Below the pieces are notes generated by a model. The model searched no databases. It saw nothing but the letters and a program-made list of their open reading frames with translations, and was not told the DNA's origin. A DNA stretch of 64,000 nucleotides from an uncultured Acidobacteriota bacterium (GTDB lineage: Bacteria > Acidobacteriota > JAQAZP01). Position numbers and translations under genes: made by a program. The stretch spans positions 1,088,001-1,152,000 of the forward strand of contig CAWIIB010000001.1 in NCBI GenBank assembly GCA_963836075.1, read 5' to 3'. The stretch's first letter is position 1. The number at the start of each line of letters is the position of its first letter. Positions 7,669 to 60,378 of this stretch are shown here, in pieces.

Positions 7669-8361
7669 TCACAGCACCTTGAAGATATACTTCAGACAGA
7701 ACCAGACACCCACCAGCAGGAAGAGGACTCCAGTGCCCCTCCTGGCCCACTTCTCGAAGCTGGTCAGCATGTTGAACGCCCGGCTCAGCCGGTGGGCGCT
7801 GAAGGCCAGCAAGAGCGAGAAGAAGACCACCGGCAGTGCGGTGCCCAGGCCGTAAAGGCAGGGCATCATCACCGGTGATCCGTGGTTGACGGCCAGCGGC
7901 ACCAGGCTGCCGAAGAAGAGGGCCGCGGAGACCGGGCAGAAGGAGAGCGCGAAGACCACGCCCAGCAGGCCCGCCCCCCAGATGCCGCCGCGGTCCGCCC
8001 GGGCCTTCATCCTCTCGGAGAGGCCGCTGCCGGCAAAGACCACGGGGACCATTTCCAGCAACACCATGCCGGCCAGGATGAGCAGTGGCCCCAGCAGGAT
8101 GTTCATGTAGCGCTGGAGAAAAGTGGAGAGCGCCGGGACCGAAGCCAGGCTGGAGAGGATCAGCAGGGCCAATGCAATGTACGCAGCCATCCGGCCCAGG
8201 GTGTAGAGCAGACCGGCGGCGAGGACCAGGCGCGGGCGATCGACCCGCTTGCCGATGTAGGAGATGGCGGTGATATTGGTGGCCAGCGGACAGGGGCTGA
8301 TGGAGGTGAGGATGCCGAGCCAGCCGGCGGTGACCAGCCCCAGCCAGTATCCCTCCATCAT
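7669..8361 (-). CDS. arsG: ArsG-family aromatic arsenical efflux permease / CcdA-DsbD-like membrane protein
   Basis: GILTSISPCPLATNI and FALSFCPVSAALFF motifs, about 6 TM helices, last gene of the ars operon. Confidence 0.75.
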   Translation of the reverse strand: MMEGYWLGLVTAGWLGILTSISPCPLATNITAISYIGKRVDRPRLVLAAGLLYTLGRMAAYIALALLILSSLASVPALSTFLQRYMNILLGPLLILAGMVLLEMVPVVFAGSGLSERMKARADRGGIWGAGLLGVVFALSFCPVSAALFFGSLVPLAVNHGSPVMMPCLYGLGTALPVVFFSLLLAFSAHRLSRAFNMLTSFEKWARRGTGVLFLLVGVWFCLKYIFKVL

Positions 8362-8876
8362 GCGTCCCCGAGAAAGGTCGAAATTTCCGATTCCACGTAG
8401 CTGTTGAATTTCATCGGGCTGTGCACCAGTTCCCAGACCCGGGTGCAGTTCTTGTATTTTACCGTCTCGCCGTCCTTCCGCTGGGCCAGGACAAGCGACG
8501 TGGTGTGCAGTTCGAAATCTTCCATGAAGTGCTTGTTTGCCGGCTGGTCCACGTTCAGCGCCAACCACTGCAATCGACCGTCCTCCATCGCCTCGGGAAA
8601 ACCGTCCTCCATGGCCATCTTTGACAGCTCCTCGATCTTGAGACAGGTGGCGCAGCGGCTCTCCGGGTGCAGGTAGTAGGCAATCACACCGTTGTCGATG
8701 GCTTGCACCGGCGGGGCCGCGGCCACGACGGGCGCGGGAGGATCTTCCCCCTGCTCCGCCGGCAGGGCGCCGGTCTTCTCCACCTCCGGCGTGTCCGCCG
8801 GATTGAGCAGGGCCCAGGCCACAGCGACAATCACAAATGCCAGCAAAACCACCGCCAGAACGTGTTTCATCTGCAT
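8358..8876 (-). CDS. arsF: ArsF-family thioredoxin-like protein
   Basis: N-terminal TM; YYLH..RCATC..IE motif; operon context. Confidence 0.7.
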   Translation of the reverse strand: MQMKHVLAVVLLAFVIVAVAWALLNPADTPEVEKTGALPAEQGEDPPAPVVAAAPPVQAIDNGVIAYYLHPESRCATCLKIEELSKMAMEDGFPEAMEDGRLQWLALNVDQPANKHFMEDFELHTTSLVLAQRKDGETVKYKNCTRVWELVHSPMKFNSYVESEISTFLGDA

Positions 8877-8889
8877 TTTCCGTCCTCCC

Positions 8890-9129
8890 TCAGCTGATCA
8901 TTCCCTTGATCTCGTCCAGCGACGGCAGTTTGCCGGTAACTTTCACCTCGCCGTCCACCACCAGGCCGGGGGTCATGATCACTCCCCGTTCGGTGATCGC
9001 CATGATGTCGGTGACCTTGACCAGTTCATAATCCAAACCCAGTTCCCGGGCCGCCTGATCGGTGAGCTCAGCAAGTTTGTCGCACTTGGCACAACCGGTA
9101 CCGAGTATTTCCAGCTTCTTCATGTTCAT
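8890..9129 (-). CDS. Small redox-active disulfide protein 2 (MTH895/ArsE-type thioredoxin)
   Basis: ILGTGCAKC, GVIMTPGLVVDGEVK. Confidence 0.9.
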   Translation of the reverse strand: MNMKKLEILGTGCAKCDKLAELTDQAARELGLDYELVKVTDIMAITERGVIMTPGLVVDGEVKVTGKLPSLDEIKGMIS

Positions 9130-10758: not shown

Positions 10759-11208
10759 TCAGGTAGTTCGGCCCTCACGCATGGCCAGGGCCTGTTCGAT
10801 CACGCGCGGCAAGCTCGAAGTGGTCTGGTAGTCGGCCAGTTCTTCGGGGAGGACGAACCGGGCATCCGCGGCGTCTGAGGCGGCGGTTGGCACACTGTCT
10901 CCGGCCGCTTCGCAGAGATAATCAACCAGGACGTAGTGATATTGCACGGTGCCGTCCTCGTCTCGGAGAATCCGGTCAAAGGTGGTGATCAGGGGCCCCA
11001 CCTCCACCTCGACCCCGGTCTCCTCCAGCACCTCCCGGCGGACACCGTCGGCCATGGATTCCCCGAGGTCGAGCATTCCGCCCGGTATGGACCAGCGGCC
11101 CTTGAGCGGTTCGCTCCCGCGGCGGATCAGCAGCACCCGGCCGTCGGGGTGGAAAACCACCCCACCCACGCCGACCCTCGGATGCTCCGGATAGCGCCTG
11201 TTCCCCAT
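10759..11208 (-). CDS. NUDIX hydrolase (ADP-ribose pyrophosphatase-like)
   Basis: Nudix box GGMLDLGESMADGVRREVLEETG. Confidence 0.92.
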   Translation of the reverse strand: MGNRRYPEHPRVGVGGVVFHPDGRVLLIRRGSEPLKGRWSIPGGMLDLGESMADGVRREVLEETGVEVEVGPLITTFDRILRDEDGTVQYHYVLVDYLCEAAGDSVPTAASDAADARFVLPEELADYQTTSSLPRVIEQALAMREGRTT

Positions 11209-19485: not shown

Positions 19486-21192
19486 CTACCGGCCTGCCGC
19501 CCGGGGCGTCCCCGACCCGCCGATCGCTGCCCGGGCCATGATCAGTGAGCTCTCGCCGGTGATGGTGTCCCGGATCCCGGTGGCTACGGCATAGTCCGCG
19601 GCGGGAAAGACCAGCCGCGCCCCGTAGCTGAAAGTTGCTTGCGGGTCCATCTCTTCCGCCGCGATGAAGATCGGGAGCTTGATGGTGTGCGAAGGGATAT
19701 AGCTCAGATCGGGGGACCGCGCGGCGATGAAGATGGTCAATTCCCCGGAATACCCTCCGGCGCTTCGCTCCACCAGACCCAGTTTGCTCTGGGGCAGCGA
19801 CACGGCAAGGGTCAACCGGGTCACGACCCCGGCGTCCTGCACGACCCGCTCCGCGGCCACCACCTCGGCCACCGCTTCCAGCGGGTTCCGCTCCAGCCGG
19901 TGATCGAAGTGGAGCAGAAGGGTCTCCTGGGCCATCCGGGTATCCGGCCCGGAAACCGACAGTGCCCTCTGGTAGCTGACGTTGAGCCGCTTCTTCTCCG
20001 GCAGGTCGAGGGTGATCCGATAGTTGGCGTCGGGCTGCCAGCCGTCGGTGCGGATGCCGATGCTGTAATAGTTGTTCAGACTGGCCCGGATCTCCTTTAG
20101 AGCCGCCGTGTAACTGCTGCTGCCCACGTAGGCCTTGCCGCCGGTTTCCCGGGCCAGGTAGGTCACCCCGCCGGACGCAACCGAAGTGAGTCGGGTGTCG
20201 GCACCCAGCCCCCGGGCATCCAAAGTAAAGACCGGGATCTCGGCCGCGTTGAGTTGCCGTACCGTCGAGAACAGCGCCTCCTTCTCATTGAAAGCGCCGG
20301 CCGACTGCTGGTTGGCCCCGCCCCGGTCATCCCCGAAGCGCAGACCCGGTCCCATCTCCACCGGCAGTTCCTCGGAGAGGAAGATGATCACTTTGCGGCC
20401 CGGCACCCCGGCAAGAAAGGTGCTCAGGGTGCCCAGGGCTTCACAGGTCAGCTTGGCGTAGTAGCTCTTCTCCCCCAGGGTCCGGTCGGCCATGTTGACA
20501 TCATTGTCGGGGTAGATGCTGGTGGGCCCCTCGCCGGCCAGCCCGCCGGGGAAAGCCGCCTGCATCGAGGCCCGCTTGAGGTTGTCCTTGAGCACATTGG
20601 GATTGGTGGTAAAACGGGTGTTCAGCTGGAACCCCTGCTCGAAATTGACCACCAGCCCCTTGTCCCCCCCACCGAACATTTCGTCCACGAAGCTGTTGAG
20701 CCTGGTGACCACCCGCGGCCGGTTTCTCGGGTCCATATGCAGGTTGTCGAAGAAGAAGACATAGTGGATCGGCTCACCTTCGATTGGATCAACTATTTCC
20801 GACGGAATGTCCGCCTGCCCCTCTTCCCCGGGTTCCGGCGGGGCATCTTCCTCTTCTTCCACCGGGGGAAAGATGGTCTGGCCGTCGCGCACTTCGTGGA
20901 ACAGGCGAACCGGAATCTCGCGGCCGTTCAATTTCAGTTGAAAATCTTCCGGATGCAGCCCCTGGACGAATTCACCAGACTTGTCCTGGACCGTCACCCG
21001 CAGATTGAGAACCCGCACCTCCAGGTCCACCTTGAGCGGATCAGGCTCCTCCCCCTCGGCACCCGGTTTCGGTATCGGCTCCATTGGCGGCGCATCCTGG
21101 GCCTCGAGAAAGGGCGACCCGCCCCATACCCCCAGGATCAGCAGGGCAAAAACCACGGTAAGCAGAAGCTTCGCGGAAGATCTCATGGGCAC
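19486..21192 (-). CDS. VWA-domain protein (VWFA-related acidobacterial type)
   Basis: Signal peptide; VTVQDKSG..VQGL..EDF; GRKVIIFLSE; LARETGG; YYSIG. Confidence 0.8.
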   Translation of the reverse strand: MPMRSSAKLLLTVVFALLILGVWGGSPFLEAQDAPPMEPIPKPGAEGEEPDPLKVDLEVRVLNLRVTVQDKSGEFVQGLHPEDFQLKLNGREIPVRLFHEVRDGQTIFPPVEEEEDAPPEPGEEGQADIPSEIVDPIEGEPIHYVFFFDNLHMDPRNRPRVVTRLNSFVDEMFGGGDKGLVVNFEQGFQLNTRFTTNPNVLKDNLKRASMQAAFPGGLAGEGPTSIYPDNDVNMADRTLGEKSYYAKLTCEALGTLSTFLAGVPGRKVIIFLSEELPVEMGPGLRFGDDRGGANQQSAGAFNEKEALFSTVRQLNAAEIPVFTLDARGLGADTRLTSVASGGVTYLARETGGKAYVGSSSYTAALKEIRASLNNYYSIGIRTDGWQPDANYRITLDLPEKKRLNVSYQRALSVSGPDTRMAQETLLLHFDHRLERNPLEAVAEVVAAERVVQDAGVVTRLTLAVSLPQSKLGLVERSAGGYSGELTIFIAARSPDLSYIPSHTIKLPIFIAAEEMDPQATFSYGARLVFPAADYAVATGIRDTITGESSLIMARAAIGGSGTPRAAGR

Positions 21193-21355: not shown

Positions 21356-21772
21356 ATGAAATCGTATCGCAAGGAACTCTGGTTCGAAGTGCCCACCCGC
21401 CGGGCGCTGATCAACATCACCCCCGAGGTGGATGAATGCCTGCGGGAGAGCGGCATCCGCGAAGGGCTGGTGCTGGTAAACGCCATGCACATCACAGCGA
21501 GTGTCTTCATCAACGACGACGAGCCGGGCCTGCACCAGGACTACGACGACTGGCTGGAGAAACTGGCGCCCCACGAACCGGTGAGCGGCTATCGCCACAA
21601 CGTGGGCGAGGACAACGCCGACGCCCACATGAAGCGCCAGATCATGGGCCGCGAGGTGGTGGTGGCCATCACCGGCGGCCAACTGGACTTCGGCACCTGG
21701 GAGCGGATCTTCTACGGCGAGTTCGACGGCCGGCGGCGGAAGCGGGTGCTGGTGAAGATTATCGGGGAATAA
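21356..21772 (+). CDS. yjbQ: YjbQ/UPF0047 secondary thiamine-phosphate synthase family protein (intact anchor of the array)
   Basis: [38 protein letters not shown]. Confidence 0.93.
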
Positions 21773-21833
21773 TGATGCGTAGCATCATCAAGTGACATCG
21801 TTGCTCTGAACAGCCAGATATTCCTCTTCTTAG

Positions 21834-22058
21834 CTACACCCATCACTCGCGTCTACCATATGGGGGAGCTTACGGAATCTAACACATGAATGGCAAGTTA
21901 GTTTGGCTGTTTACGAGTCAAGCGCTGTGACGTGGGATAGATTTACTGTAGCAATCCCAGGTAATGCTGTTCTTGAAGAAGATATCGAAAGCACATTTAA
22001 GGATTTCATTGATGACTTAATTATTGATTACTTGGCGGCCAATAGGAGTAAAAACTAA
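21834..22058 (+). pseudogene. Headless 3' remnant of a hypothetical gene
   Basis: 74-codon stop-free frame with no ATG, ending VTWDRF..IESTFKDFIDDLIIDYLAANRSKN*. Confidence 0.45.
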
Positions 22059-22066
22059 GTTTATTA

Positions 22067-22270
22067 ATGGAAGATCACATAATAAAAGTCAATGCACATG
22101 GCAATAAGGTATGGTCGAAGATTATTGAAGGTATCGATTATGGTTACGCTGTAAAGGAGACATCCGATGGTGGTTTTATTATCACAGGATTCACCGACAC
22201 AAACAGTCAAGATATGTATCTTCTCAAGCTTGACAGCTTGGGGAATGCGCCCACCATCGCTACTAAGTGA
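22067..22270 (+). pseudogene. 3' remnant of a beta-propeller-repeat secreted protein
   Basis: GNKVWSKII..DYGYAVKETSDGGFIITG..DMYLLKLDSLGN is about one unit of a normally multi-repeat protein; no signal peptide. Confidence 0.7.
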
Positions 22271-22362
22271 TAACAGTTGTATCTCAAAATAACGAATGAA
22301 TAATAATGAGGTTTTGCAGCAGCATTTTTCCAAAATAAATCCCGCAGAATTGGCATGGTTCT

Positions 22363-23856
22363 CTAGTTTTGTGAATCGATGGGGTCTATATAAGTGAACA
22401 GCCAGAAAGGGCCAGGCCATGATTTCGTTTTATTAGAAAAATGTAAGACAACCGATGATGGTTTTGAAGCCGATAGATCAACTACTCCATCATTCAGCCT
22501 ATGCTGGATAGCACAAATATTGTTTTCACCGCGCTTGATATTCCATTGCCGAGAATGACCTCTCTGCGGTGAACACGTGAAGACCCATTGTTCATAGTTA
22601 TCTGGTTCATCTGGATCTGGCCGCGGAGTGTGGGCCCTGAGTAAACGACCAGTAGATTTTTGCTGTATTGTATAATAATCGCCTTCCACTCTGGACACAA
22701 TCCACTTCTGTGAATCATCATCCTTAAGCTCAGACGTGAAAGCTCTAGAGTTTTCAGGATCTACTGCCCGAACATCCTCAATCTCATAAGCATCAAGAAA
22801 TTGTTGATTAAAAACATTTTGGATCCTGTATATCCCAGATTTCAAAGAAGTTCCAGCAACTGCTGGAGGAAAAGGGAATTTCTTGCAATACTCAGCAAAT
22901 GCATTTTCCAGTGTTTTTCTTCTCTCCCCGTTTTCGGTTAATTCCCAAATCGGACGCAGACTATCCTCATTAAAATCAACAAGAACAGGCATTCCTTCAA
23001 TTCCATCGGCCCAGCCTTTGTACGCTTCGTAAGTTTCTAAATCTCTCAACAGTTCCGGGTTGCCACCGACCGCATATAGACTTGTAGTTGTATTCTCATT
23101 TTCAATTATACTTTCAGTTTCACCAGATACTTTTACCCCTACGGATATACATTTGTACTTCGCTTTAACGGCTGTCTTAAACTTGTTTTTTTCTTCGGTT
23201 TGAGTATATGTCGTCGAAGCTCTGTATTCTGCTCTTCCACCCAGAATTGCTGAAAAAATGAAATGCGTTCCATACATTTCGAACAGTTTAAAAGGAACCA
23301 TTTCTTCTAAGTCTTGTTTAAAATTTTCTTCCAACAGTGACTTATAAGCATCTCTTCTTTCATCAAATTGTATAAGCCATTTTTGCGTTACATCACCATA
23401 GGTGTAATAATATTTCTTCCCGGTTTTTTCTTTACCCAGCTCAAAATTTTGTTCTACTGATGCTTTAAAGAAAAAGGCATTCGCCCTTAATCCCACTTTT
23501 ACTGCAAGTTCTTGTGAATATTCCTCACGACTCGATCCTTCGGCCGTAAAGATGTCTTTCTGAGAAAGATTCTTCAGTGCAACATAGTCTGGAACCAAAT
23601 ATCGCTTTGTCCCAATTGGCGTTATGGATGAACCGGTATACTTAAAGAGACAATATGGCTTAAGGCCACCCTGTGTTGCATAATCGCCAAATACATCGTA
23701 TCCATAACCGAGAACATCCAATCCAGGCGCTGGCTCAGCCTCTGGATCAACACCAAAACCGGTTTGCTCAAACACAGTTACCAATGCAGTCTGAGCCGTA
23801 GCAGGCGTAATGAATAAAAGAGACAGAATAAGATAGAATGTGATATGCTGATACAT
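22363..23856 (-). CDS. MACPF/perforin domain protein with C-terminal ricin-B-like lectin domain
   Basis: Signal peptide; LGYGYDVFG; YGTHF..AILGG MACPF signature; PIWEL; QKW/QW beta-trefoil repeats; AT-rich. Confidence 0.88.
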   Translation of the reverse strand: MYQHITFYLILSLLFITPATAQTALVTVFEQTGFGVDPEAEPAPGLDVLGYGYDVFGDYATQGGLKPYCLFKYTGSSITPIGTKRYLVPDYVALKNLSQKDIFTAEGSSREEYSQELAVKVGLRANAFFFKASVEQNFELGKEKTGKKYYYTYGDVTQKWLIQFDERRDAYKSLLEENFKQDLEEMVPFKLFEMYGTHFIFSAILGGRAEYRASTTYTQTEEKNKFKTAVKAKYKCISVGVKVSGETESIIENENTTTSLYAVGGNPELLRDLETYEAYKGWADGIEGMPVLVDFNEDSLRPIWELTENGERRKTLENAFAEYCKKFPFPPAVAGTSLKSGIYRIQNVFNQQFLDAYEIEDVRAVDPENSRAFTSELKDDDSQKWIVSRVEGDYYTIQQKSTGRLLRAHTPRPDPDEPDNYEQWVFTCSPQRGHSRQWNIKRGENNICAIQHRLNDGVVDLSASKPSSVVLHFSNKTKSWPGPFWLFTYIDPIDSQN

Positions 23857-23925
23857 AGTTTTGTCCTTTCACTGTACATATAAACAAGTGAATATAGCCC
23901 AGATAAAGAACATACATAATCTGAC

Positions 23926-23954
23926 ATTATGAGTTAATTATGAAATATTGTCAA
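23926..23954 (-). promoter_or_regulatory. Sigma70 promoter of the MACPF gene
   Basis: Minus strand TTGACA-17-CATAAT. Confidence 0.7.
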
Positions 23955-24260
23955 GAGATATATTGCTGCAGTGATTTAATTAAATGAAGTTATTATTTAA
24001 ATATCAGACGTGAAATGTTGAAATGAAACTCAATAATATTACACTTGTAAGTGGCCTTATGAAAAATATAGATTTATTTAGCATTTGTTGTTGGAACACC
24101 TCAAATTGATGGCAGGCATAGTCATAAGAGGAAACTGGAAGAAAAAGGATCGATTAATAAATTATTTTAAATAGGGCCTTCGCCTCCCGAAAGCGCAGTT
24201 AGAAAAGGTAACAATGATTTACGTGACGGATGATATAGCTTGCGTATGAGCTTCACGCTC

Positions 24261-24506
24261 GGCCTGCACCAGGACTACGACGACTGGCTGGAGAAGCTGG
24301 CCCCCCACGAACCGGTGAGCGGCTACCGCCACAACGTGGGCGAGGACAACGCCGACGCGCACATGAAGCGCCAGATCATGGGCCGTGAGGTGGTGGTGGC
24401 GATCACTGACGGCCAGCTCGACTTCGGCACCTGGGAACGGATCTTCTACGGCGAGTTCGACGGACGGCGGCGGAAGCGGGTGCTGGTGAAGATCATTGGA
24501 GAGTGA
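24261..24506 (+). repeat. yjbQ: yjbQ 3'-end copy 1 (246 bp)
   Basis: Matches 21527-21772 with 17 differences by hand count, one amino-acid changing. Confidence 0.97.
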
Positions 24507-24510
24507 GAGG

Positions 24511-24642
24511 TCAGAACCGTCCACCCTTCAAGGCGGTACCGCGGGTGAGCCCCGGAAACGCCTCAAGCGACAGCCACTTGAATACCTGTGAACCCTCGAG
24601 TTTGTAAACCAGGACCTCGGTGCCGGCGCTCGGACTGGGTCC
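24511..24642 (-). pseudogene. 3' tail of an FG-GAP-module gene
   Basis: GPSPSAGTEVLVYKLEGSQVFKWLSLEAFPGLTRGTALKGGRF* aligns without gaps to the C-terminus of the 30206 gene. Confidence 0.85.
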
Positions 24643-24697
24643 GCGGTCCCGCGGTCAGACCCGGGGCGGCCGCTACCCCGGGTCTGATGCAGAAGGC

Positions 24698-27600
24698 CTA
24701 CCTCTTGTAGGTTACTCCTCCCGGCTTAAGCACCGGACGTTCGCCGGAGGCAAAAGCGGCAATATCGAGCTGGTCGATCTTGCCGTCCCCGGTGAGGTCG
24801 GCCACGATCAGCTCGGCCAATCCCCTGCGCACAAGTTCCGCATTGGTGATCGCGGTGACCGGGGGATGAACCGGCTCCGGCAGGCCGCAGCACGCCGCGT
24901 CATTGCCCTGCAGGAAGTTGATCTGGATGTAGCTGAACTCGTCCGTGTCCACCAGGCCATCGCCGGTCACGTCGGCATGGAAGGGCGCGGTGCCGCAGTC
25001 GGTATCGGCCGAACCGTAATCCACCAGCCAGTTCATCGAGAAGACACCGAAGTCGAGGATGTCGATCCAGTTGTCGTTGTTGAAGTTGCCCAGCACGAGA
25101 TCGCTGGTGGCCGTGATGAAGTCGGCCACATACTGCGTGCCGAAGATCTCGAACGTCGGGCTCACCATGGTCCGGCGCAGGGAGTGCAGTTCGTCCTGGA
25201 CCGCGACGCAGGAGTAGGCGCCGCAGGGCACCAGGACCGTGGCCGAGGCGGAACCGGCGGTGAATTCGACGACTTCTTCAACGGTGACGCTGCTCGGCCC
25301 GCCGCACTCCCAGAGGGTGATGGTGAGGCAGCGGTCGAACGGACCGGCCTCCACGTCGCCGTCGAAGTCGAGGCTGAGCACCAGCTCGTTCACCGCGTCG
25401 ACGGTGATCGTCTGGACCTGAGCCGGCGAGACATTGCCGCAGGCGTCGGTGGCGGTCCAGGTGATGGTGATCGGCGAGTCGGTCGAATCGTAGGGATCGG
25501 TGAGACTGGCACCGCCATCACTGCGCACCCAGCCGATGACCGGCGCCCCGTCGCAGTTGTCCACCGCTGTGGCCGCCCCCGGATCGACAGCCGCCGAGCA
25601 GAGGCCGGCGTCGGCGTTCACGGTGATGTCGCCGGGAATGGTTAGCACAGGAGCGATGCTATCATCAACCGTGATCGTCTGCACGCACTGGCTGACGTTG
25701 CCGCTGGCATCGGTGGCGGTCCAGGTACGGGTGATCGCCTCCTCCTGCGGGCAGGCGCCGGCGGCAGTCGAATCGGAGTAGTCGACCACCGGCGCCGGAT
25801 CAGTGTCATCCGTCGCCGTGGCCTGTCCGGTGAAGGCCGGGTCGCTGGAAGTGCCGCACTCGATGGTCAGGTCCCCAGGACAGACGATCACCGGGGCAGT
25901 GCTGTCCTCCCACTCCGTGTCACCGAGGCGATAGAAAGCGCCGGCGTCATGCTGGTTGTTGTATTCCGTCCAGATCCATCCCGCACTCCTCGCGACATCC
26001 GAGATCCGCACCTCGTCCATTAGGCCATCAAGACAATTCCTGTCATCAATATCACCAGTGTTCTTCCAGCGGGTCGCCAGACCCATGTTGGACGCGTAAG
26101 TCCCCACGGAACAGTTGCCATTCGCCGTCGTGCAGGTTCTGGTCACGTCCGGGTCGCCATCGACGTAGAACGTCATGTCATCATCGGCAATCGAAACCAC
26201 GATATAGTGCCAGGTGTCGTCACTGATGTAGACCGTGCCAGTCTCCCGTTCGGCGGACCCGGTGTAGTCATGAGTTCGCCCGACCTCGTTGTAGCCATCG
26301 GTGATCCCGAAAGAGAACGGGACACGAGTATCAGTACCGCTTTCTCGACGCAATTCGAGCAGGAGAACGCTCGGATACCACACGTCGGCGGCGAGTTCGC
26401 CATTCTCTTGTGACGTCTTGACCCAGGTCGAGATGGTGTAGTCGTTATTGTTGCCGAGGCCCTGGAACTCTGGATCCACGGTCCCGCTGTCGAAGACGCT
26501 GACGTAGTCGTCAATCCCGTCGAAATCGTCGGCACCGTCGATCGGCCCGACGGCATTCTGGGTCACGCCACCAACCGGCGTTCCATCGTTGGCGTATTGC
26601 GTGGAATCGAGGTGCACTCCGCTCGTCTCGTCCAGGTGATGGACCATGAGGAAGTTGAAGTCCCAGGTTTCGGCGACGTTCTCCTGGTTCTCGGCAACGG
26701 GATTGCCGAAGTAGAGGTATAGCGTCGTGTCGACCGTCGACGGCAGGAAGGGCACCTCCACCCAGGCCACCAGATGTCCGGTCGAGCTGTCATATGTTTC
26801 TATCTCGTGGTCCAGCTTCGTTCCGTCGTAGGTGGTAAAGACCAGGTCGTCTCCATCGCTTTGCGCCGTCGTCCGCAGATCGTCGTCGACGATGTCGACC
26901 AGGATTGGAAAGCTGGTGAGGTCGTCGCCGACCAGGGTGTGATCAATGGTGATCGGTTTGCGGAACGGCCAGGCACCGTCCCACCAGGGGCCTTGGACAG
27001 TGAAGCTGAAGACCTCGGTGGTTTCATGGACACCGTCAGTAGCATAGACCTGCCACTGGTATGTCCCGTAGGTCAGCCCGGAAACGCCGACCTGGTAAGT
27101 TCCGTCGTAGACGCCGCTCGCCGAGTCGGAGCCGATGTCGGGGATCGTCGTGACGCTGTAGTCCATCGGCAAGCCCTCCCAGTCGGTCAGCGTGAAGCTG
27201 AGTTGGGAGAGCAGCGGCGGCACGTCGTTGGCGCCGTCTGCGGGGTCGGGGGCGGAGACGAGTGGAGCGAGTGATTCCTCGCCGCCGATCAGGGTGTATG
27301 GCTCAGGCTCGACATACTGGCGCACTCGGACGTCGTCGAAGTGTACGTCCGTTGCCGAGGAGTAGGCGCGCAGCACAGCCGGCCTCGAACCGGTCAAGGT
27401 CGCGTCCGTGCCGCTGAGCCAGCGATTCGTGCCCCGGTCGTCCACCTCGCCGCTCAGTGACGACCCGGCAGCCCCCAGCCCCAGCGGATACCAGGTATTG
27501 GGCACCCAGTGCGCATTGTTGCCGGCGTCCCAGATATCGACGGTCTGGAAGGTGCCGCCGGCCCTCTCCAGCAGCTCGGCCGCGTCATTCAATCCAACGG

Positions 27601-29214
27601 TATCGCGGATGAGCGTTCCGTACCAGTTGTCCTGGTCCTGGTAACGCAGGCCCACGCCGTGGCGGCTGCCGTTCTCCACGGTGAACTTCAACCTGGCGTC
27701 GATTCTCGCATCGGCCGGCATGTTGGCGTCGGTGACAATGACACTCTCCCAGGGCTCCTCCGTTAGCATATTGCTGCGCAGTTCGCCGTTGACCCCACCG
27801 GTCAGCCCCAGGGCCGCACCGATGTCGGTCTCGATGACAAGCCCGATCTGGCGGGTCTTGGGCCCGATATCGGAACCGCCGTAGTAGACCCACAGTTCAT
27901 CATTCGGGAATGTGTCTTTCTCGATGGTGTGCGTCAGGACCCATGGGGCGTCGGTATCGTCACCATCCCATTCGTCAGGGCCCCCCACCCCGAACGCCTT
28001 GCCGATACGCTCGCGCTGACCGGGGTAAAACGTGGGGCTGCTGTCCCGGTAGAGCTCCTGTTCCGAGAAATCGCTATCCGACCTGTAATGGCCGACGAGA
28101 ATGTAATATTCCCCGTTGTAGGTGAACGGGGCTGTGGTATGTCGCCCATTCACAAAAAGCGGATTGTTCGGATCTTGCGTCCAGTTGACCAAATCGGTGG
28201 AGGTCGCCAGTCCGGTCCGCCTGTCTAAGCCCGATGCAACGTTGTTGTGGAAGGCGTAGTACGTCGAGCCGACCTTCATCACGCCGATGATCTCGAGGTT
28301 CTCGCCAGCTTCCGTCAGAACCGGATTGCTCGGGTCCCTGGTCCAGTTGACCCCGTCGGGCGACGTCGCCAGCCCGGCGGCCCTGTAAGTGCCGCTCCCC
28401 ACGTAGAGCATGTACCAGGTGCCGCCCTCGATCCAGACCGTGGGGCCGATCACTTCAGTGTCATCCCACGCGCCGGGTGAACCCACGTCGAGCACCGCTC
28501 CCACCGGATCATCGACCCAGTTGGTCATGCCGTCCGACGAACGCTTGCGGTGAATGCGAGCCCTGCCGCCGCTGTCATGGCGGTAGGTACAGATAATACG
28601 TGCCGCCATCCAGGACCACGGCCACAGCGTAGCCGTCGGCAGGGAACATCGGGTTGTTCTCGTACTTGTGCCAATCGAGATCGTGATAGATCGACCAGTC
28701 GCCGGAGACCTCGCTCCATTGAATCAGGTCACCGCTGAAGTCGTCGAAGAACGAGAAGGTATCCTGCCCGCTGGCCGCGGCGGCCGCGGCCCCGTTCCCA
28801 TAGGTACATGTAAATGGTCTTGGTTGACGATGCAGGGATACTCGGGTTCTCAACCCAGATCCGGGTGTCCGAGGTGTTGACCCCCGACTCGATCCAGAAG
28901 TCCAGCTCCGTCGCGTTGTCGCTGTCGATGAAGCGGATATCGTCGCCCTGTTCATCCATCTCGCCGTTGGCGATCGGGCTGGCCGTGTCCACCGTGACAA
29001 GGACCACGTAGTTCGTCAGGGCTCCTCCCCCGGCGGTGTTGTCAACCGTAATCACCGCTCGGTGAATCCATGCGTTATCCCACCAAATGGATGGGTCGCC
29101 CGACGCTTCCTGGGGGGGGACGAGCAGCGCGAGGCAAACCACGAGCAAGGGCAGAAAACCAGCACGGCTGACGCGAAGACCATCATGATTGTTCATCGTT
29201 CCATCCTTTCCCAA
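24698..29214 (-). CDS. Large secreted multidomain protein: DUF2341, glycosidase-like beta-propeller, DUF2341, LamG, HYR-like repeats, dockerin-like end (frameshifts near 28800 and 28620)
   Basis: ORFs 28729..29214, 28575..29000 and 24698..28609 join; DDIRF..LDFWIE..IWV; GLATSPDGVNWTR; GLMDEVRIS; DLTGDGKIDQLD. Confidence 0.75.
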
Positions 29215-29343
29215 ACAGACACCAACCGCGAAACTGGCTCCTCCGGACAGCGGGTAGCAGACGAAATCTCTAAGACCTGACGGCTGAAATTCCGTTCGAG
29301 CAGGGGACCCAGACGAGAAAGAGCTTAATGAACGCAGAACTTA

Positions 29344-29377
29344 AAGCAATTTACATTGAAAATAAGCAATTTACATT
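29344..29377. promoter_or_regulatory. 14-bp direct repeat, 20-bp period, possible transcription-factor site
   Basis: AAGCAATTTACATT at 29344 and 29364, upstream of the 29214 gene. Confidence 0.5.
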
Positions 29378-29512
29378 CCATATTTTTCAGCAGAGACCAT
29401 TCAGACCAGTAATTTCCTGAAATGGTTGATTCTAATTCGTTTAGGGCAAAACATAGTCCCGAAAGGATTGCTTGAAGAACCCGAGTAAATGTCATCATTG
29501 GCACCGGATTAC

Positions 29513-29695
29513 TCATTTGGTGGAAGTATTTTCATAAGCTCGCATCTTCGGCCCCCGTCCTTTGACATCCCTGCAGGAAAGATGAAAATGGCAGACGTCG
29601 TTCTCATCGCTCTGGCCGCCCAGACAGTTGTCGCCACCGCAATCCCTGACCTCGTAATGGCTGCCGACACACTCGACTCAGAATGCACGGATTCC
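29513..29695 (-). pseudogene. Decayed small Cys-rich gene, phage/MGE-like
   Basis: [36 protein letters not shown] with an in-frame TGA where a Cys would complete CxxC. Confidence 0.5.
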
Positions 29696-29763
29696 TCTTT
29701 GTTTCTCAGGAAGTTGGCCGTTCAGGACGAACAGCAAAGGGCAAGTAAAACTAGATTTTCTCT

Positions 29764-30059
29764 TAAACGCCATGCACATCACCGCCAGCGTTTTCATCAA
29801 CGACGACGAGCACGGCCTGCACCAGGATTACGACGACTGGCTGGAGAAGCTGGCCCCCCACGAACCGGTGAGCCAGTATCGCCACAACGTGGGCGAGGAC
29901 AACGCCGACGCCCACATGAAGCGCCAGATCATGGGCCGCGAGGTGGTGGTGGCGATCACCGATGGCCAGCTGGACTTCGGTACATGGGAGCGGATCTTCT
30001 ACGGCGAGTTCGACGGCAGGCGGCGAAAGCGGGTGCTGGTGAAGATCATTGGGGAGTGA
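29764..30059 (+). repeat. yjbQ: yjbQ 3'-end copy 2 (296 bp)
   Basis: Matches 21477-21772 with 24 differences, 3 amino-acid changes. Confidence 0.97.
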
Positions 30060-30107
30060 GGTGGGTCATCCTGAAGGGACACCGCTTCTGGGTAGCCGAA
30101 CCGCTGC

Positions 30108-30194
30108 TCACGGCGCGATCCCCGTCACCGTGCACCTGTCCATGTCAGTGTTTCCGGCCGGCGGAAACGGCGGCTGGTTGCAGGGAAACGGCGT
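30108..30194 (-). pseudogene. 3' tail of a YNQPP C-terminal-domain gene
   Basis: TPFPCNQPPFPPAGNTDMDRCTVTGIAP* compared with TPAPYNQPPFAPSGDTDSDACTVTATAP* of the C25 protein. Confidence 0.85.
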
Positions 30195-30205
30195 CCTGCA
30201 ACCGC

Positions 30206-32410
30206 TCAGAACCTTCCTGCCGCCACGTTGGCCCCATGCGTCATGCCCTGGAACGCCTCAAGCGAGAACCAGGGGGTCACTCCGGAGCCATCGTATTGGA
30301 ACACCTTCACTTCAGTGTTGGCGTCAGGATCAGGGCCACAGCCCACCACTATTTCGTTCCAGCCCTCGCCATCAAGGTCGGACCCGGCAAAGACTTTGGC
30401 GCCATACCGGACCCCAGACGGCGGCCAGGCTAAGAAACTCAGTCCGGGCAAAGGCGTGCCGTTCATATCGAATCCCCGGATGTGGGCGCCGAAAACCGGA
30501 GAGGGACCCGGTGCGGTGATGATCTCGTCGATGCCGTCTCCGTCCACGTCGCCGCAGCTGATGTTCACGCCGTATTTGTGGGTGCCGTAAGCGATAAAGC
30601 TGCAGCCGGGTATGGACGCCGCCGTTCCCCCGTCCACGTTCCAACCCCGCACGTGAGGCCCGTAGACGGCCCCGGGACCCGCGCCAGTGACGATCTCGTC
30701 ATAGCCATCCCCGTCGATGTCACCTGCTGAGACGTTCACCCCCCACTTGGGTGTTCCATAGGCGAAGTAGCTCACGGTGGATATCGGCGTCACGTCAGGG
30801 CCACCGTCGTAGTCCCAGCCGCGGACATGAGGGCCAAACACCGCACCGGGGCCTGCTCCGGTGATGATCTCGTCAAATCCGTCTCCGTCGATGTCACCCG
30901 CGGCCACGTTCACGCCCCACTTGCTGGTGCCATACGCGAGGTAGCTGAGGCCCTCGAGGGGCGCGCCGTCCACCTGAAATCCCCGCACATGGGGACCGAA
31001 GATCGGTCCCGGACCTGGGCCGGTGATGATCTGATCGACGCCGTCAGCAAACACGTCACCACAACTGACGTTGACGCCGGCGGCGCCACCGTATGCGTTA
31101 AATTCAAAAGCAGCCTCGGCATTCTGCTCGGGTGGGAACACCCTCACAGTCGGAGGATTTTGCGTATGGGGGCCAGGTCCAACAACTATGCCCGTTGCCG
31201 GGTAGTGGTATCCCATATCTTTACTGCCCCATGCTGCCAGGCATCTGGTTGTGCCGCAGAGCTCCAGCGATGGAAGTCCGGCACCCACACATGGGCTGTT
31301 TTCCGGATCGCCGCAAATGACATTGCTGAGGTAGTAAACACCATGGGGGCCGCTGACGAAGAGCGGATCGGCATCTATGTTGCTCCCACCCGGCCATCCG
31401 CCCTGGACGTCGGAGAAGTAGATCAATGGGTCGCCCGAATACACTTCGATACTATTCGGAGAGTTGTCCCAGATGATGCAGTTAGAGATAATTGGTGAGG
31501 AACTCATGCAGTAGACCCCACCACCAAGATCATCACCACGGTTCCGGCTGAAGGTGCAGTTGGTGATCCTTGCCGGGGCCCAGAAGCAGTAGATCCCACC
31601 ACCACGATCAGAATCGTTCCCGTTGAAGATGCAGTTAAAGATCTTTGGAGAGGAATTCGTGCAGTAGATCCCGCCACCAGCACAATGAAGAGATCCGTTT
31701 CCGTTGAAGATGCAATCGGTGATTGTCGGGGAACCCTGCTCACAGGCTATCCCCCCGCCAGCAGCAACAGTCCGGTTCTCGCTAAAGGTGCAGTTCGTGA
31801 TCTTTGGCGAGGACCCGACGCAGTAAATCCCACCACCAAGATCAGGACCACGGTTCTCGCTGAAGGTGCAGTTGGTAATCGTTGGCGAAGACCCGACGCA
31901 GTAAATCCCACCACCCCAATCAGCCACATTTGCGCTGAACGTGCAGTTGGTGAATGTCGGGGACCCGTCCTCGCAGTACATCCCGCCACCATCACTTGCT
32001 CTGTTCGCGCTGAAGGTGCAGTTGGTGATCGTTGGTGAGGTGTACGCGTCGCAGTTAATCCCACCACCGCGTAACGCATGATACCCATTTTGAATGGTGA
32101 ATCCGTCCAGCACGGAATTCTCACCTTCACTGAAGAAAAAATTAAACCCGCGACCCTGCTCCTCACAGTCGATAATGCAGTTCTCCGCCCCATTCTCCGA
32201 CCTGACCGTGATTGCCTTACCGAGGAAGTCGATGTCACGGTTGCCCTGACCGGTGTAAGTGCCATCGGCCACCAACACCTTGTCTCCGTCTACTGCGGCA
32301 TCGATGCCCGCCTGGATAGTGGGCTGGACACCGGGGACGTGGATGACATCAGCCGAGAGCACCAAAGGGCAGCAGAGCAGTAAGAGAACAAGAATCACTG
32401 TGCATCTCAT
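30206..32410 (-). CDS. Secreted right-handed beta-helix (pectin-lyase fold/Pmp-like repeats) protein with C-terminal FG-GAP repeat module
   Basis: Signal peptide; TIQAGIDAA; repeated GGGIYC..SPTITNCTFSxN; GDIDGDGxDEIITGxGPG..GPHVRG repeats. Confidence 0.85.
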   Translation of the reverse strand: MRCTVILVLLLLCCPLVLSADVIHVPGVQPTIQAGIDAAVDGDKVLVADGTYTGQGNRDIDFLGKAITVRSENGAENCIIDCEEQGRGFNFFFSEGENSVLDGFTIQNGYHALRGGGINCDAYTSPTITNCTFSANRASDGGGMYCEDGSPTFTNCTFSANVADWGGGIYCVGSSPTITNCTFSENRGPDLGGGIYCVGSSPKITNCTFSENRTVAAGGGIACEQGSPTITDCIFNGNGSLHCAGGGIYCTNSSPKIFNCIFNGNDSDRGGGIYCFWAPARITNCTFSRNRGDDLGGGVYCMSSSPIISNCIIWDNSPNSIEVYSGDPLIYFSDVQGGWPGGSNIDADPLFVSGPHGVYYLSNVICGDPENSPCVGAGLPSLELCGTTRCLAAWGSKDMGYHYPATGIVVGPGPHTQNPPTVRVFPPEQNAEAAFEFNAYGGAAGVNVSCGDVFADGVDQIITGPGPGPIFGPHVRGFQVDGAPLEGLSYLAYGTSKWGVNVAAGDIDGDGFDEIITGAGPGAVFGPHVRGWDYDGGPDVTPISTVSYFAYGTPKWGVNVSAGDIDGDGYDEIVTGAGPGAVYGPHVRGWNVDGGTAASIPGCSFIAYGTHKYGVNISCGDVDGDGIDEIITAPGPSPVFGAHIRGFDMNGTPLPGLSFLAWPPSGVRYGAKVFAGSDLDGEGWNEIVVGCGPDPDANTEVKVFQYDGSGVTPWFSLEAFQGMTHGANVAAGRF

Positions 32411-32717
32411 GAGACAACTCCCATATTGATATATCGTGAGGGATGAAGGGTACAAATGTGCTGCAGGCCGGTGGTAACTGATGAGTGGACGGTTCACGAA
32501 GGTGTGAATTGACCGCTTTGGCTGGCTGGATCCGGCCCGTTCCAAGAATTGTGTGACACCCGCCCGGAGTGGAGAAAATCAGCTGTTACGTCTGTAAAAA
32601 ATAGATAGGTTACACCCTGATCGTCCATGTATTTTAACAATATCTACCAATGACAGGTTATCACAATTGGAAGGAAAGTGTCGTTTGGTTCTAGCACAGG
32701 CACGCCCCTGCGCTCCA

Positions 32718-32831
32718 GTCGTTGCCATCACCGACGGCCAGCTGGACTTCGGTACCTGGGAGCGGATCTTCTACGGCGAGTTTGATGGCCGCAGCCTTCA
32801 GCGGGCGCTGGTGAAGATCATCGGGGAGTGA
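32718..32831 (+). repeat. yjbQ: yjbQ 3'-end copy 3 (114 bp, most diverged)
   Basis: [37 protein letters not shown]; 17 differences in 114 bp, 5 amino-acid changes. Confidence 0.93.
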
Positions 32832-33015
32832 TACCCACCCCAATGGTCCGCGGCTCCGAATAATCTACACTTTTTGTGTCACACCTGCTATGGTTATTTC
32901 TTAGTATGTGGGGAGGAGACGAGGATACGCCCGACTTCAGGCCGATTTCAGGGCCAGACGTTCGGCTGCTCGACCCTGACTGCAAAAACGAAAATCGATC
33001 ACGAAAAGGAAACCA

Positions 33016-33717
33016 ATGATGAATCACCGAAAGTTTTTGAATGCGGCTTTATGTGTATTGATCGCCCTCACCTTGTCCGGAATTGGAACAGCAGTCGTCC
33101 TGGCTGAGGAAACGGATGAGCCGGAGAAGTTGATCGGCGACATGAAGGGCGCCTACGTCCGGCTGGTCTACAACTCGGAGGGCTGGGTCGTGCTGGGGTA
33201 CAAGGCGGCGAACAACTCGCTGGACCAGGAGTGGCTGCTGCTGGAAGTGGGCATGACGCTGATCAAGGGCCAGGCGAACCAGGAATGCGTTCGGGAAGAC
33301 CTCTCGGTGCTCACACCTGATGGGGAGATCATCCCCATGGCCACCCAGGTGGAATTCGGTAAGGCCGGACACCTCAAGGCGCTGAACAAGAGAGCCGACA
33401 TGCAGCGGGACAACATCAACTACTTCCCCACCGGAACCACCATTCCCTGCCGCATCGGCTTCTTCTCGGACCCCACGGACAGCTCATTGAAACCCTATGA
33501 CAAGTTCGAGCTGGCCTACGGGCGCGGCTGCCTCGGCCGCATTTTCTTCAAGATCCCCGGCGGCATCAAGATGGGCCGCTACTTTCTGCTGGTGCAGTTC
33601 GACAACAGCGTGATCAAGGTACCGTTCAAGATCATGACCTCCAAGGAAGCCAGCGAAAATTACAAGACCTGGCAAAAGATGCAGAAAGAGGCGAAGAAAG
33701 CCAACAAAGCGAGCTGA
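33016..33717 (+). CDS. Hypothetical secreted protein
   Basis: Signal peptide, host-like codon usage, SD AAGGA, followed by a terminator. Confidence 0.75.
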   Translation: MMNHRKFLNAALCVLIALTLSGIGTAVVLAEETDEPEKLIGDMKGAYVRLVYNSEGWVVLGYKAANNSLDQEWLLLEVGMTLIKGQANQECVREDLSVLTPDGEIIPMATQVEFGKAGHLKALNKRADMQRDNINYFPTGTTIPCRIGFFSDPTDSSLKPYDKFELAYGRGCLGRIFFKIPGGIKMGRYFLLVQFDNSVIKVPFKIMTSKEASENYKTWQKMQKEAKKANKAS

Positions 33718-33974: not shown

Positions 33975-35976
33975 ATGGGCGACGAGCGATTCGGCAACAG
34001 GCTTGTGGAGGAGGGGCTGGTCAACCAGCGCCAGCTCGACGAAGCAATCCAGATCCAGCAGCAGGGCAATACCAATAAACCGATCGGGCAGATCCTCCAG
34101 GAGCTTGGCGTTCTGACCAAGAGACAGCTCGATTTCGTGCTGGACAAGTATAAAAAGAGAAACTACCTGGGCGAGATCCTGGTCAATCGGAAGGAGATCA
34201 ACCGGGAGCAGCTGAAGTTCGCTCTGGAGGAGCAGAAGGTATCCGGGCTCCCCCTGGGTGAGACACTGGTCAGGTTGAACTTCATCACCGAAGAGATCAT
34301 GCGGGAATCGCTCTGCGTGCAGTTGAACATCGCCTTCATCGACCTGGAGAAGTACCATCTCCCGGACGACCTGAAAAAGCTGATCAACAGGAACTACGCC
34401 CGCAAGCACTCAATCATCCCGGTGAGCCGGATCGGCAGTAACATCACGCTGGCGATGAACGATCCCACGGACCGGGCAGTGATCGAAGAGCTCCAGTCGT
34501 TCACCGGGCTGACCATCAACCCGGTCACCTCGACCCAGACCAGCATCAAGAGGGCATTCAACCGGCTCTACGGTGACGAGAAAATTGAGGAGCCGGGGGA
34601 TCGGCAACGCTACGACGTGATTCTGGAGGAGTCGAAAAAAAGCCCTGATGAACCGGAGCAGCCGGATGAGGATCAGGCGCTGCGAAAAGCCGACCAGATC
34701 GTCAGGGACATCATCAGGGCGGCCACCGAGCACGGCGCCAGCGACATTCACCTGGAAACCCTGGAACGTCAGATGACCGTTCGGTTCAGGATTGACGGCG
34801 TGCTCAAGGATCTGGCCATCCCCAATCTGGAAGAAGCCCTGGCGGCCAACCAGCGGTCCATCACGTCGCGGCTCAAGATTCTGGCCTGCCTCGACATCGC
34901 TGAGAAGCGGCGACCGCAGGACGGGAGCTTCCGGGTCCTGACACATCGGGGTGGTGAAATGATCCACCTCGACTTCCGGCTCTCGGTTATTCCCGGCTAC
35001 CACGGTGAGAACGTTGTGCTGCGGATTCTGGACCAGCGCGCGGCGCCGCGGTCGATCAAGCAGCTCGGTTTTTATGATCAGATCGACAAAGAGCTGCGCA
35101 AGGCCCTCAGTTCCACGGAAGGGATCTTCCTGGTCACCGGGCCTACGGGTTCCGGAAAGAGCACCACTCTGTTCGGCATCCTGATGCACCTGCACAAGCC
35201 AACGGTCAAGATTCTCACCGCCGAGGATCCCATCGAGTATGTCTACGAATCATTTATCCAGTGCGAGGTCAACGAGAGGATCGGCAACACCTTTGCCGGC
35301 TACCTTCGCTCGTTCCTGCGCCATGACCCGGAAGTGATCATGGTGGGTGAGATCCGCGACCAGGAGACGGCGGAGATGGCCTTCCGCGCCGCGCAGACCG
35401 GCCACATGCTGCTGAGCACACTGCACACCAACGATGCCGTCAGTGCCGTGACGCGGCTGATGGATATGGGCGTGGACAAGAACCTGATCGCCTCCTCGCT
35501 CCGGGGTGTCCTGGCCCAGCGCCTGGTGCGTCAAATCTGCACTGAGTGCAAAGAGGAGTACAGCCCCCCCGGCGGATCTGATCAAGGAGTTTTTCAGCTC
35601 TCCCGTCACAGACATCACCTGGTACAAGGGGGCGGGATGTCCGCACTGCAACTATACCGGGTACAAGGGACGGATGGCGCTGGGAGAATTGTGGATCCCC
35701 AGCGAGAGCGACATTCTGATGATCAACAAGGGAGCGCCCATCGAGGAGATCAAACAGAGCGCCTCGGAGAGCACCGTCTTTATGATGGACGATGCGATGG
35801 GCAAACTGAGGGAGGGCAAAACAAACCTCGAAGAGCTGATCCGCATGCTCCCCTATTCCAGCGTGTATCACAACCGTCAGAAGATGGCCGCAAAGGTGAA
35901 GCCAGCCAGAAAACCGGCCCGTAAAAAAGTCGTCGCCAAAACAAAGAAAGCGGCCGCTTCAGGAAAAGCGACCTAG
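33975..35976 (+). CDS. GspE/PulE/PilB secretion ATPase with MshEN-like N-terminal motifs (frameshift at C7 tract 35564-35570)
   Basis: ASDIHLE, PQDG, GPTGSGKST, TAEDPIE, LRHDPEVIMVGEIRD, CxxC...GCPHC..GYKGR. Confidence 0.9.
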
Positions 35977-59976: not shown

Positions 59977-60378
59977 TCAACCGTGATCGGCTCCCTGCAG
60001 CAGGACACTCCTGGTTCGGGGGCCGTCGAACTCGCAGAAGAAGATACCCTGCCAGGTTCCCAGCTGCAGCTGGCCACCTTCGACGATGACCTGCACCGAA
60101 GAGCCCATCAGGCTGGCCTTGACATGGGCTGCCGTGTTGCCCTCGCCGTGCCGGTAGCCGCCGGTCCAGGGCACCATCCGGTCGAGCACCAGTTCCATGT
60201 CGGCCATCACTGCCGGGTCCGCATGCTCGTTGATCGTCACCCCCGCCGTGGTGTGGGGCACGAAAACGGTGATGACCCCTGCTTCGATGTCCAGCCGGTC
60301 CACGGCCTGGCGTACTTCACCGGTGATCTCCACGAAATCGGTCCGCTTCCTCGTTTTTACCGTCAGTTTTGTCTTCAT
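59977..60378 (-). CDS. yjbQ: Second, divergent YjbQ/UPF0047 paralog
   Basis: PHTTAGVTINE, EGNTAAHVKASL, LGTWQGIFFCEFDGPR. Confidence 0.92.
   Translation of the reverse strand: MKTKLTVKTRKRTDFVEITGEVRQAVDRLDIEAGVITVFVPHTTAGVTINEHADPAVMADMELVLDRMVPWTGGYRHGEGNTAAHVKASLMGSSVQVIVEGGQLQLGTWQGIFFCEFDGPRTRSVLLQGADHG

Follow-up and report, generated by a model that had tools for sequence, protein, structure and literature searches.

Arrangement of the yjbQ locus

We analysed a stretch of 64,000 nucleotides (nt) from an uncultured Acidobacteriota bacterium, in the following called the window, in which an intact yjbQ gene is followed by three further copies of its 3′ part. Each of these partial copies is separated from the preceding one, or from the intact gene, by unrelated DNA with one main gene on the opposite strand. 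In the following, the partial copies are called tails t1, t2 and t3 and the segments in front of them cargo 1, 2 and 3, counted from the intact gene. The window corresponds to positions 1088001-1152000 of contig C1 of the source genome (G000), a metagenome-style assembly of 6.23 Mb in 10 contigs with 94.7% completeness and 4.6% contamination. For comparison we used the corresponding loci of two congeners (G001 and G002) and three metagenome loci (L143, L144 and L145).

A repeat search, an in-register comparison and a DNA search of the whole genome agreed that the three tails are direct repeats, lie in register with yjbQ and run through its stop codon. An earlier note on this DNA, made from the sequence alone, had described an intact yjbQ followed by three units of cargo plus yjbQ 3′ end, with different starting points and no common junction motif, and the description holds in both respects: the tails begin at three different points (nt 172, 122 and 304 of the gene for t1, t2 and t3), and no motif shared by these starts was seen. 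The note had also let all repeats end exactly at the stop codon. All of them indeed run through the stop, but the homology of t3 goes ~112 nt further, as judged from a second locus in G000. The non-coding stretch that follows t3 (32832..32960, plus strand) recurs there at 83% identity together with a tail remnant of 52-68 nt (G000:C9:1817428-1817598). Comparing t1 or t2 with the intact gene, we found no convincing homology past the stop codon; the regions downstream of the intact gene and of t2 share a weak similarity of ~35 nt. Searching 20-35 kb of the window against Rfam yielded no match at E ≤ 1.

Table 1 Positions of yjbQ, its tails, the cargo genes and the flanking genes in the window (aa, amino acids; ORF, open reading frame).
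Feature	Position	Strand	Evidence and remarks
Conserved left flank, 568-aa VWA-domain protein	19486..21192	-	NCBIfam TIGR03436, 1.3e-37; adjoins yjbQ in G001, G002 and the three metagenome loci
Intact yjbQ (UPF0047, 138 aa)	21356..21772	+	Pfam PF01894, 1.1e-37; NCBIfam TIGR00149 YjbQ
Cargo 1, MACPF and ricin-B lectin protein	22363-23856	-	Domain matches; signal-peptide-like N-terminus
Tail t1, yjbQ nt 172-417	24261-24506	+	229/246 nt as in intact gene; E 1.1e-102; protein 99% identical
Cargo 2, DUF2341, LamG, HYR, dockerin giant	24698..29214	-	Main ORF 24698-28609; domain matches
Tail t2, yjbQ nt 122-417	29764-30059	+	272/296 nt as in intact gene; E 3.7e-120; protein 97% identical
31-codon 3′-end remnant of another secreted-protein gene	30108..30203	-	Between t2 stop and cargo 3 stop; DNA and translated match to C-terminus of a G001 gene
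Cargo 3, Chlam_PMP repeats and FG-GAP C-terminal region	30206-32545	-	Domain matches
Tail t3, yjbQ nt 304-417, decayed	32718-32831	+	97/114 nt as in intact gene; E 4.8e-31; protein 86% identical
Right flank, 233-aa secreted protein	33016-33717	+	58-59% identical homologue in G002 and L143, directly behind yjbQ there
Right flank, T2SSE/MshEN ATPase	33975-35924	+	Also in G001, G002 and L143

A separate paralogue of yjbQ, 40% identical, is located at 59977-60378 on the minus strand. The protein of the intact gene carries Pro57, where seven other aligned copies have His or Ser, and Gly107, where nine other copies have Asp, Glu or Asn.

The array is an insertion inside yjbQ

The flanks of the array are syntenic in the relatives, with a sulfatase gene and the VWA-domain gene on the left and genes for the T2SSE ATPase, a sensor kinase, a DUF4003 protein and an S8 peptidase on the right. 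The slot behind yjbQ, however, varies. In G001, the VWA-domain gene and yjbQ are followed by a 294-aa radical-SAM gene and then by T2SSE. L143 has a homologue of the 233-aa gene (59% identical) between yjbQ and T2SSE, and in L144 and L145 yjbQ faces a convergent FG-GAP gene of 1078 aa. A second tail is absent from all four of these loci, none of which is interrupted by an assembly break. In G002, the 3′ part of yjbQ stands at the start of a contig and is followed by the 233-aa gene and T2SSE.

Behind t3, the window keeps this native order: the end of the gene is followed after ~185 nt by the 233-aa gene and then by T2SSE. The intact yjbQ, in turn, keeps its native 5′ flank. As the native 5′ flank is on the intact gene and the native 3′ flank on t3, the inserted DNA begins with the 3′ part of the intact gene and extends to the 5′ edge of t3, and the ~11-kb block is thus an insertion inside yjbQ. 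This is in line with the earlier proposal that new DNA came in by way of yjbQ and displaced older 3′ ends downstream. The tail-less relatives and the native order behind t3 speak for it, as do the mostly synonymous differences in t1 and t2 and the low GC content of cargo 1 described below. As the note had anticipated for the regions downstream of yjbQ, the content of the slot varies among relatives with kept flank synteny, the four unbroken loci being free of tails.

It is highly improbable that the array is a chimera assembled from strains that differ downstream of yjbQ. Such an origin would be in keeping with a metagenome-style, partly contaminated assembly, and no read or contig from the four runs searched, which gave short contigs of low depth, was seen to bridge a tail junction. 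The tails, however, show mutual differences of 7-15% and unique truncated 5′ junctions, which no assembler can invent. The array moreover lies inside a large contig, the window starting at position 1,088,001 of C1 and matches on C1 reaching 2.27 Mb, and near-identical short contigs for pieces of all three cargos and of both flanks exist in runs X1, X2 and X3 from two studies. Two apparent skips in run X7 (21387>29766 and 21498>29892) were considered as traces of excision and rejected; they stem from yjbQ genes of other organisms that align partly to the intact gene and partly to t2.

Tails t1 and t2 carry the signature of foreign alleles

Compared to the intact gene, 17 of 246 nt differ in t1, 24 of 296 in t2 and 17 of 114 in t3. 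Because the differences in t1 and t2 are almost only synonymous, they arose in working genes of other lineages. By this signature, t1 and t2 are the ends of foreign functional alleles, and t3 has decayed in place. The G001 orthologue is 93% identical to the intact gene at the DNA level and 97% at the protein level, and DNA identities of 90-93% for the G001 and G002 orthologues place the donors of the tails at about the distance of congeners.

We mapped shared alleles by eye, with few informative sites in the four copies. The intact gene shares the alleles of G001 up to about nt 330; of its last ~60 nt, 8 differ, compared to 10 of the preceding 186. The 5′ parts of t1 and t2 share non-native alleles with each other, and at its end t3 agrees with the native G001 gene over a short stretch and in the last 15 nt. 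This distribution suggests that the intact yjbQ is probably a native 5′ part joined to the most recent foreign 3′ end, and that t3 is probably the original native end. A hint of the same polarity is that t3 is the shortest and most decayed tail, together with the low GC content of cargo 1.

Cargo genes

Domain matches for all three cargos bear out the expectation that each unit holds one main minus-strand gene for a secreted or surface protein, with small corrections only. Cargo 1, the unit next to the intact gene, has an un-ameliorated GC content of 0.37-0.42, compared to 0.60-0.67 in the flanks. A promoter-like site matching at 11 of 12 positions lies upstream of it (23954-23926, minus strand), and an ORF of 118 aa at 22064-22420 looks spurious. 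In cargo 2, an N-terminal DUF2341 piece with a signal peptide (28729-29214, minus strand) is in a different frame from the main ORF. Near-identical environmental contigs show 1-nt deletions relative to the window at 28586 and 28803, and the frameshifts may be assembly errors rather than signs of a pseudogene. Neither cargo 1 nor cargo 2 has a DNA match in G001 or G002, and a donor search for both found no close relative among genome contigs.

Cargo 3 probably starts near 32410, not at 32545. Stretches with 70-75% nt identity to its FG-GAP C-terminal region (~300 aa, 30206-31220) occur on many contigs of G000, G001 and G002, by the dozen in each congener, joined to varied N-terminal parts, which looks like a large family of modular surface proteins. 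The last 319 aa of cargo 3 are 65% identical to those of an FG-GAP gene on contig C9 of G000, which itself has a yjbQ tail on its 5′ side. A second conserved C-terminal domain of ~115 aa, without a Pfam match, ends many secreted proteins of the genus, including a homologue of C25 peptidases. It is encoded at 52083-52382, 55525-55824 and 60514-60813 in the window, at 8564-8923 of locus L037, and in more than 40 stretches of G000.

Tails and relics at other loci

Further tails exist outside the window. On contig C13 of G002, in a locus otherwise syntenic with part of contig C9 of G000, an orphan tail (nt 249-417) adjoins the 5′ end of a fasciclin gene. There, a block made up of a transglutaminase gene, the fasciclin gene and the tail takes the place of other DNA. 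On either side of it lies a fragment of an IS91-like transposase gene (8260-8383 and 10910-11034 of locus L040), the order of the fragments being swapped. Intact copies of IS91-like transposases are located at G000:C9:2233207, 2469077 and 2477736. On contig C84 of G001, a 68-nt remnant (nt 334-402) adjoins the 5′ end of a gene for an 830-aa secreted protein, and another G001 contig contains a 34-nt match. The remnant on contig C9 of G000, which with its ~112 nt of downstream sequence resembles t3 and its flank, lies beside the FG-GAP gene related to cargo 3. Also on this contig, a gene with a citrate-synthase domain (L136 7564-9429) has an N-terminal extension of 248 aa that begins inside sequence copied from behind t3.

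From these tails and the 31-codon remnant in front of cargo 3 it follows that the position behind the yjbQ stop codon has been overwritten repeatedly and that tails travel with cargo. Their occurrence next to cargo at the loci in G002, G001 and G000 fits with tails being part of the ends of elements. Altogether, the six tails of the genus start at nt 122, 172, 249, 304, 334 and ~346.

In other taxa, we found little of this kind. A second copy of the conserved 3′ motif was absent from 80 yjbQ loci of other phyla, searched up to 10 kb on each side, and 15 of 15 loci from other families of the phylum had a single full-length match only. In a sample of 301 genomes of the phylum, 265 had a match, and among the 150 best matches listed, partial ones of high identity came from G000 and G002 only; a further 321 weaker matches lie outside these 150, so that short tails elsewhere are possible. 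The phylum tallies include the unpublished genomes G025, G048 and G151, on which we make no specific claim. A candidate in G030 (aa 88-138, 53% identical, with one stop) was rejected: it is a decayed relic surrounded by housekeeping genes, and its vicinity contains no integrase. Similar arrays, which the earlier note had proposed to look for across bacteria, were not seen in the 80 loci of other phyla or in the three metagenome loci.

Some of these observations would also suit a non-polar patchwork without any dedicated entry point, put together by unrelated illegitimate events such as deletions, duplications of segments, rolling-circle capture of the IS91 type, or one-ended homology-facilitated illegitimate recombination with its anchor in the right flank. 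The remnant of another gene between t2 and cargo 3, the duplication of t3 and its flank beside a paralogous FG-GAP gene, the IS91-like fragments around the orphan tail of G002 and the membership of cargo 3 in a large native family all point in this direction. We nevertheless regard a patchwork as improbable: all four yjbQ copies share one orientation, lie in register and include the stop codon, and a native 5′ flank on the intact gene with a native 3′ flank on t3 is the specific product of an insertion inside the gene. Moreover, the window contains no IS91 sequence; a Y2 rolling-circle transposase next to the captured DNA, the mark of IS91/ISCR elements (ISCR, insertion sequence common region), is missing from it.

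Recombinases in the genus and at yjbQ elsewhere

Six-frame searches of the whole G000 genome with PF00589, PF04986, PF14319, PF07508 and PF00239 gave no match within the window, and a scan of its 42 ORFs found no recombinase or transposase family, DDE transposase families not having been searched for separately. Outside the window, G000 has 4 matches to PF00589, 11 to PF04986 and 5 to PF14319. For serine recombinases, G000 yielded no match to PF07508 and no significant one to PF00239, and PF07508 had no match in G001 and G002 either. The tyrosine recombinases of the genus are Xer-like or adjoin IS91 elements far from the window. We detected no attC-like inverted repeats between 19 and 36 kb, where a single unrelated inverted pair is present. 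Within these searches, the earlier statement that no integrase, transposase or attC-like site is visible stands. The array thus lacks genes for integration and transfer, whose loss is characteristic of cis-mobilizable elements (CIMEs).

Elsewhere, yjbQ is the target of dedicated integrases. It is named among the insertion hotspots of mobile genetic elements in Vibrio cholerae in a preprint (10.1101/2024.07.25.605194). In the viral contig L157, a gene for a tyrosine integrase (PF00589, 9.6e-40) lies ~410 nt from a yjbQ tail of 69 nt (nt ~349-417) that ends in a hairpin. This integrase is Xer-like and 38-42% identical to the two Xer-type genes of the genus, a likeness that says nothing specific. 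In a second viral contig of 6.7 kb (L156), which is phage-like and carries a capsid gene, yjbQ is found between an ORF for the N-terminal part of a serine recombinase (221 aa) and a serine recombinase of 566 aa (L156 3881-6597). Scanning with the L156 recombinase, we identified in another genome a recombinase ORF with Resolvase and Zn-ribbon domains that runs into a piece of yjbQ starting at codon 43 (locus L158). A degenerate pattern did not find the 5′ half of yjbQ at this locus. Recombinases linked to yjbQ tails, which the note had proposed to search for, are present in L157 (a tyrosine integrase) and L158 (a serine recombinase).

The junction at codon 42/43 recurs in the genus. In the alignment, the similarity of t2 to yjbQ starts within ~5 nt of the L158 junction, which applies to t2 only, t1 and t3 starting further downstream. 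In G002, the two contigs that carry the halves of yjbQ (C58 and C172) overlap by an identical 55-mer whose first base is precisely that of codon 43 (nt 127). The overlap points to a second sequence that joins yjbQ at nt 127 in the G002 sample.

Model for the growth of the array

The anatomy of the array is what recombination between a resident gene and incoming circular DNA with the 3′ part of this gene would specifically produce. We give an even chance to the following reading, a decayed, CIME-like tandem accretion at an integration hotspot in yjbQ, driven by dedicated yjbQ-targeting integrases that were later lost with the element backbone or acted in trans. Foreign segments, each with the 3′ part of the yjbQ of another strain, would have recombined into the resident gene in three or more events, or in a single one as a composite assembled beforehand. 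In each event, the native 5′ part and the incoming 3′ part would rebuild an intact gene, and the former 3′ end would be left over as a dead tail behind the new cargo. Cargo 1 would then be the layer added last, and the original gene end would be found in t3 and its flank. Integrases of yjbQ-targeting mobile elements would have carried out the recombination, one of the serine type at codon 42/43, in agreement with the edge of t2, and others of the tyrosine type nearer to the 3′ end; we infer that integrases were involved at t1 and t3 as well. With these integrases and the element backbones lost, or with integrases that acted in trans, what would remain is single cargo genes with their own upstream regions, bounded by attachment-site (att)-like tails, a state described for CIMEs and degenerate tandem islands.

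The coincidence at codon 43 and the integrase-linked tails elsewhere argue for site-specific entry, but several observations weigh against this reading. The array has no integrase, excisionase, backbone gene or detectable remnant of one, inside or nearby. No large serine recombinase was found in G000, which is 94.7% complete, or in G001 and G002, and the tyrosine recombinases are Xer-like or beside distant IS91 elements. The cassettes measure only 2.7-5.6 kb and hold one gene each. A serine-type insertion splits its target, so that an intact yjbQ requires an extra step. The codon-43 coincidence itself rests on one verified junction, that in L158, and six different tail starts are more readily explained by random breakpoints or subsequent trimming than by a single fixed core. 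On the matter of an att core, yjbQ-targeting integrases exist elsewhere and the edge of t2 fits one of them, but the tails begin at different positions, and searches of G000, G001 and G002 yielded no cognate integrase. Taken together, the different starts, the missing integrase remnant and the one-gene cassettes argue for either heavy trimming or entry by RecA alone.

Entry by RecA would make the accretion free of any recombinase of its own: a circle with a yjbQ 3′ fragment and cargo enters by a single Campbell-type crossover, and the repeats allow it to loop out and re-enter, with yjbQ serving as a portable homology tag. We consider this a serious rival, if less probable than entry by dedicated integrases. 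Besides the lack of a recombinase in the window and the six starting points of six tails, it draws on the length of the tails (114-296 nt), their identity to the intact gene of 85-93% and identical runs of up to ~32 nt, as counted by eye. Judged by the likeness of the tails to the intact gene, which equals that of the G001 and G002 orthologues, the donors are as distant as congeners are, and with YjbQ proteins 80-90% identical across phyla, homology is widely on offer. Tails with non-native 5′ parts and an intact gene with a G001-like 5′ part are also what a single crossover predicts. Yet the edges of t2 and of the break in G002 coincide with the site of a dedicated integrase, and there are yjbQ tails on elements that carry an integrase. 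The low-depth contigs available showed neither a circular nor a deletion junction, and the first tail would still require an illegitimate event. Finally, the absence of a second tail motif from the 80 cross-phylum and three metagenome loci shows that high conservation alone yields no arrays. A broader form of this idea, in which the 3′ half of yjbQ is a portable homology tag and single-gene modules of cargo plus tail circulate among congeners, enter by RecA alone, stack in a polar array, loop out through the tail repeats and occasionally land elsewhere, we judge unlikely. It would amount to an integron-like system that captures surface and secreted proteins with no need of a dedicated recombinase.

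The earlier note had favoured an integrase-less, RecA-driven and integron-like platform. With dedicated integrases targeting yjbQ (L157, L158) and with t2 and the G002 break at codon 43, such a platform is not specifically supported. The evidence now favours an integrase that acted in trans, an alternative listed in the note, or one that was lost, with capture by RecA alone as its rival.

Relation to known systems and implications

The proposed integrase-driven accretion has parallels in several known systems. In CIMEs, too, a new arrival enters at a site holding a gene end and stacks beside the old unit; here, in contrast, the genus has no known cognate integrase, each unit holds one gene, and the repeats of 114-296 nt have different starts. 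The element of the L158 type shares with the array the gene and the position of the t2 5′ edge and the G002 contig break. It differs in carrying its integrase and splitting the gene, whereas the array has no integrase and an intact yjbQ, with t1 and t3 beginning at other positions.

Integrons consist of IntI, attI and attC cassettes, the promoterless cassettes being read from the promoter Pc. The array resembles them in its polarity, with new units entering at one end. It has, however, no IntI and no attC-like inverted repeats, and its antisense cargo has upstream regions of its own, with the promoter-like site before cargo 1. The yjbQ array is therefore not an integron, and the likening of it to an integron without IntI in the earlier note fails on this anatomy. 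In complex class 1 integrons with ISCR1, a truncated second copy of the 3′-conserved segment is explained by homologous rescue of a circular intermediate. The array shares with these the placement of cargo between a full and a 5′-truncated direct copy of a conserved segment, but no IS91/ISCR gene is present in the window, and IS91-like fragments flank only the orphan tail block of G002.

In the islands built by tycheposons of Prochlorococcus, neighbours are separated only by partial copies of the target gene and newcomers push older ones deeper (10.1101/2020.12.28.424599). The separators and the displacement are as in the yjbQ array, and the islands likewise hold scattered degenerate remnants and extra partial targets. 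They differ in a tRNA target, an att of ~40 nt and the finding of integrases or their fragments, compared to a protein gene and no integrase fragment here (10.1101/2020.12.28.424599). For orphan immunity-gene arrays of type VI secretion systems in Vibrio and for the C-terminal displacement in Rhs (rearrangement hotspot) and contact-dependent inhibition proteins, homology-facilitated illegitimate recombination has been proposed (PMC5361080). As in the yjbQ array, older 3′ pieces are displaced one after another to positions behind a conserved anchor, and no integrase is known; there, however, the displaced pieces are variable toxin tips and immunity genes of the anchor itself, and here they are conserved gene ends with unrelated antisense cargo (PMC5361080).

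New in the array are the use of yjbQ as a target, the long unequal tails, the single surface-protein cargos and the lack of a recombinase at the array, together with negative serine-recombinase searches in three genomes of the genus. Within the limited literature covered, the V. cholerae preprint was the only source on yjbQ as an integration site, and no description of such arrays was found. The array looks more like a worn trace of yjbQ-targeting mobile elements than a novel cassette system that works without a recombinase. Considered along with the examples that bear an integrase, it marks yjbQ as a multi-family integration hotspot in several phyla. If the cassettes did move without an integrase, this would be a simple route of gene capture missed by annotation pipelines, which look for recombinases. 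The locus illustrates how a small and extremely conserved gene can turn into the point from which a genomic islet grows by addition, with diversification of surface and secreted proteins, here the MACPF lectin of the pore-forming type, the DUF2341 giant and the PMP/FG-GAP protein.

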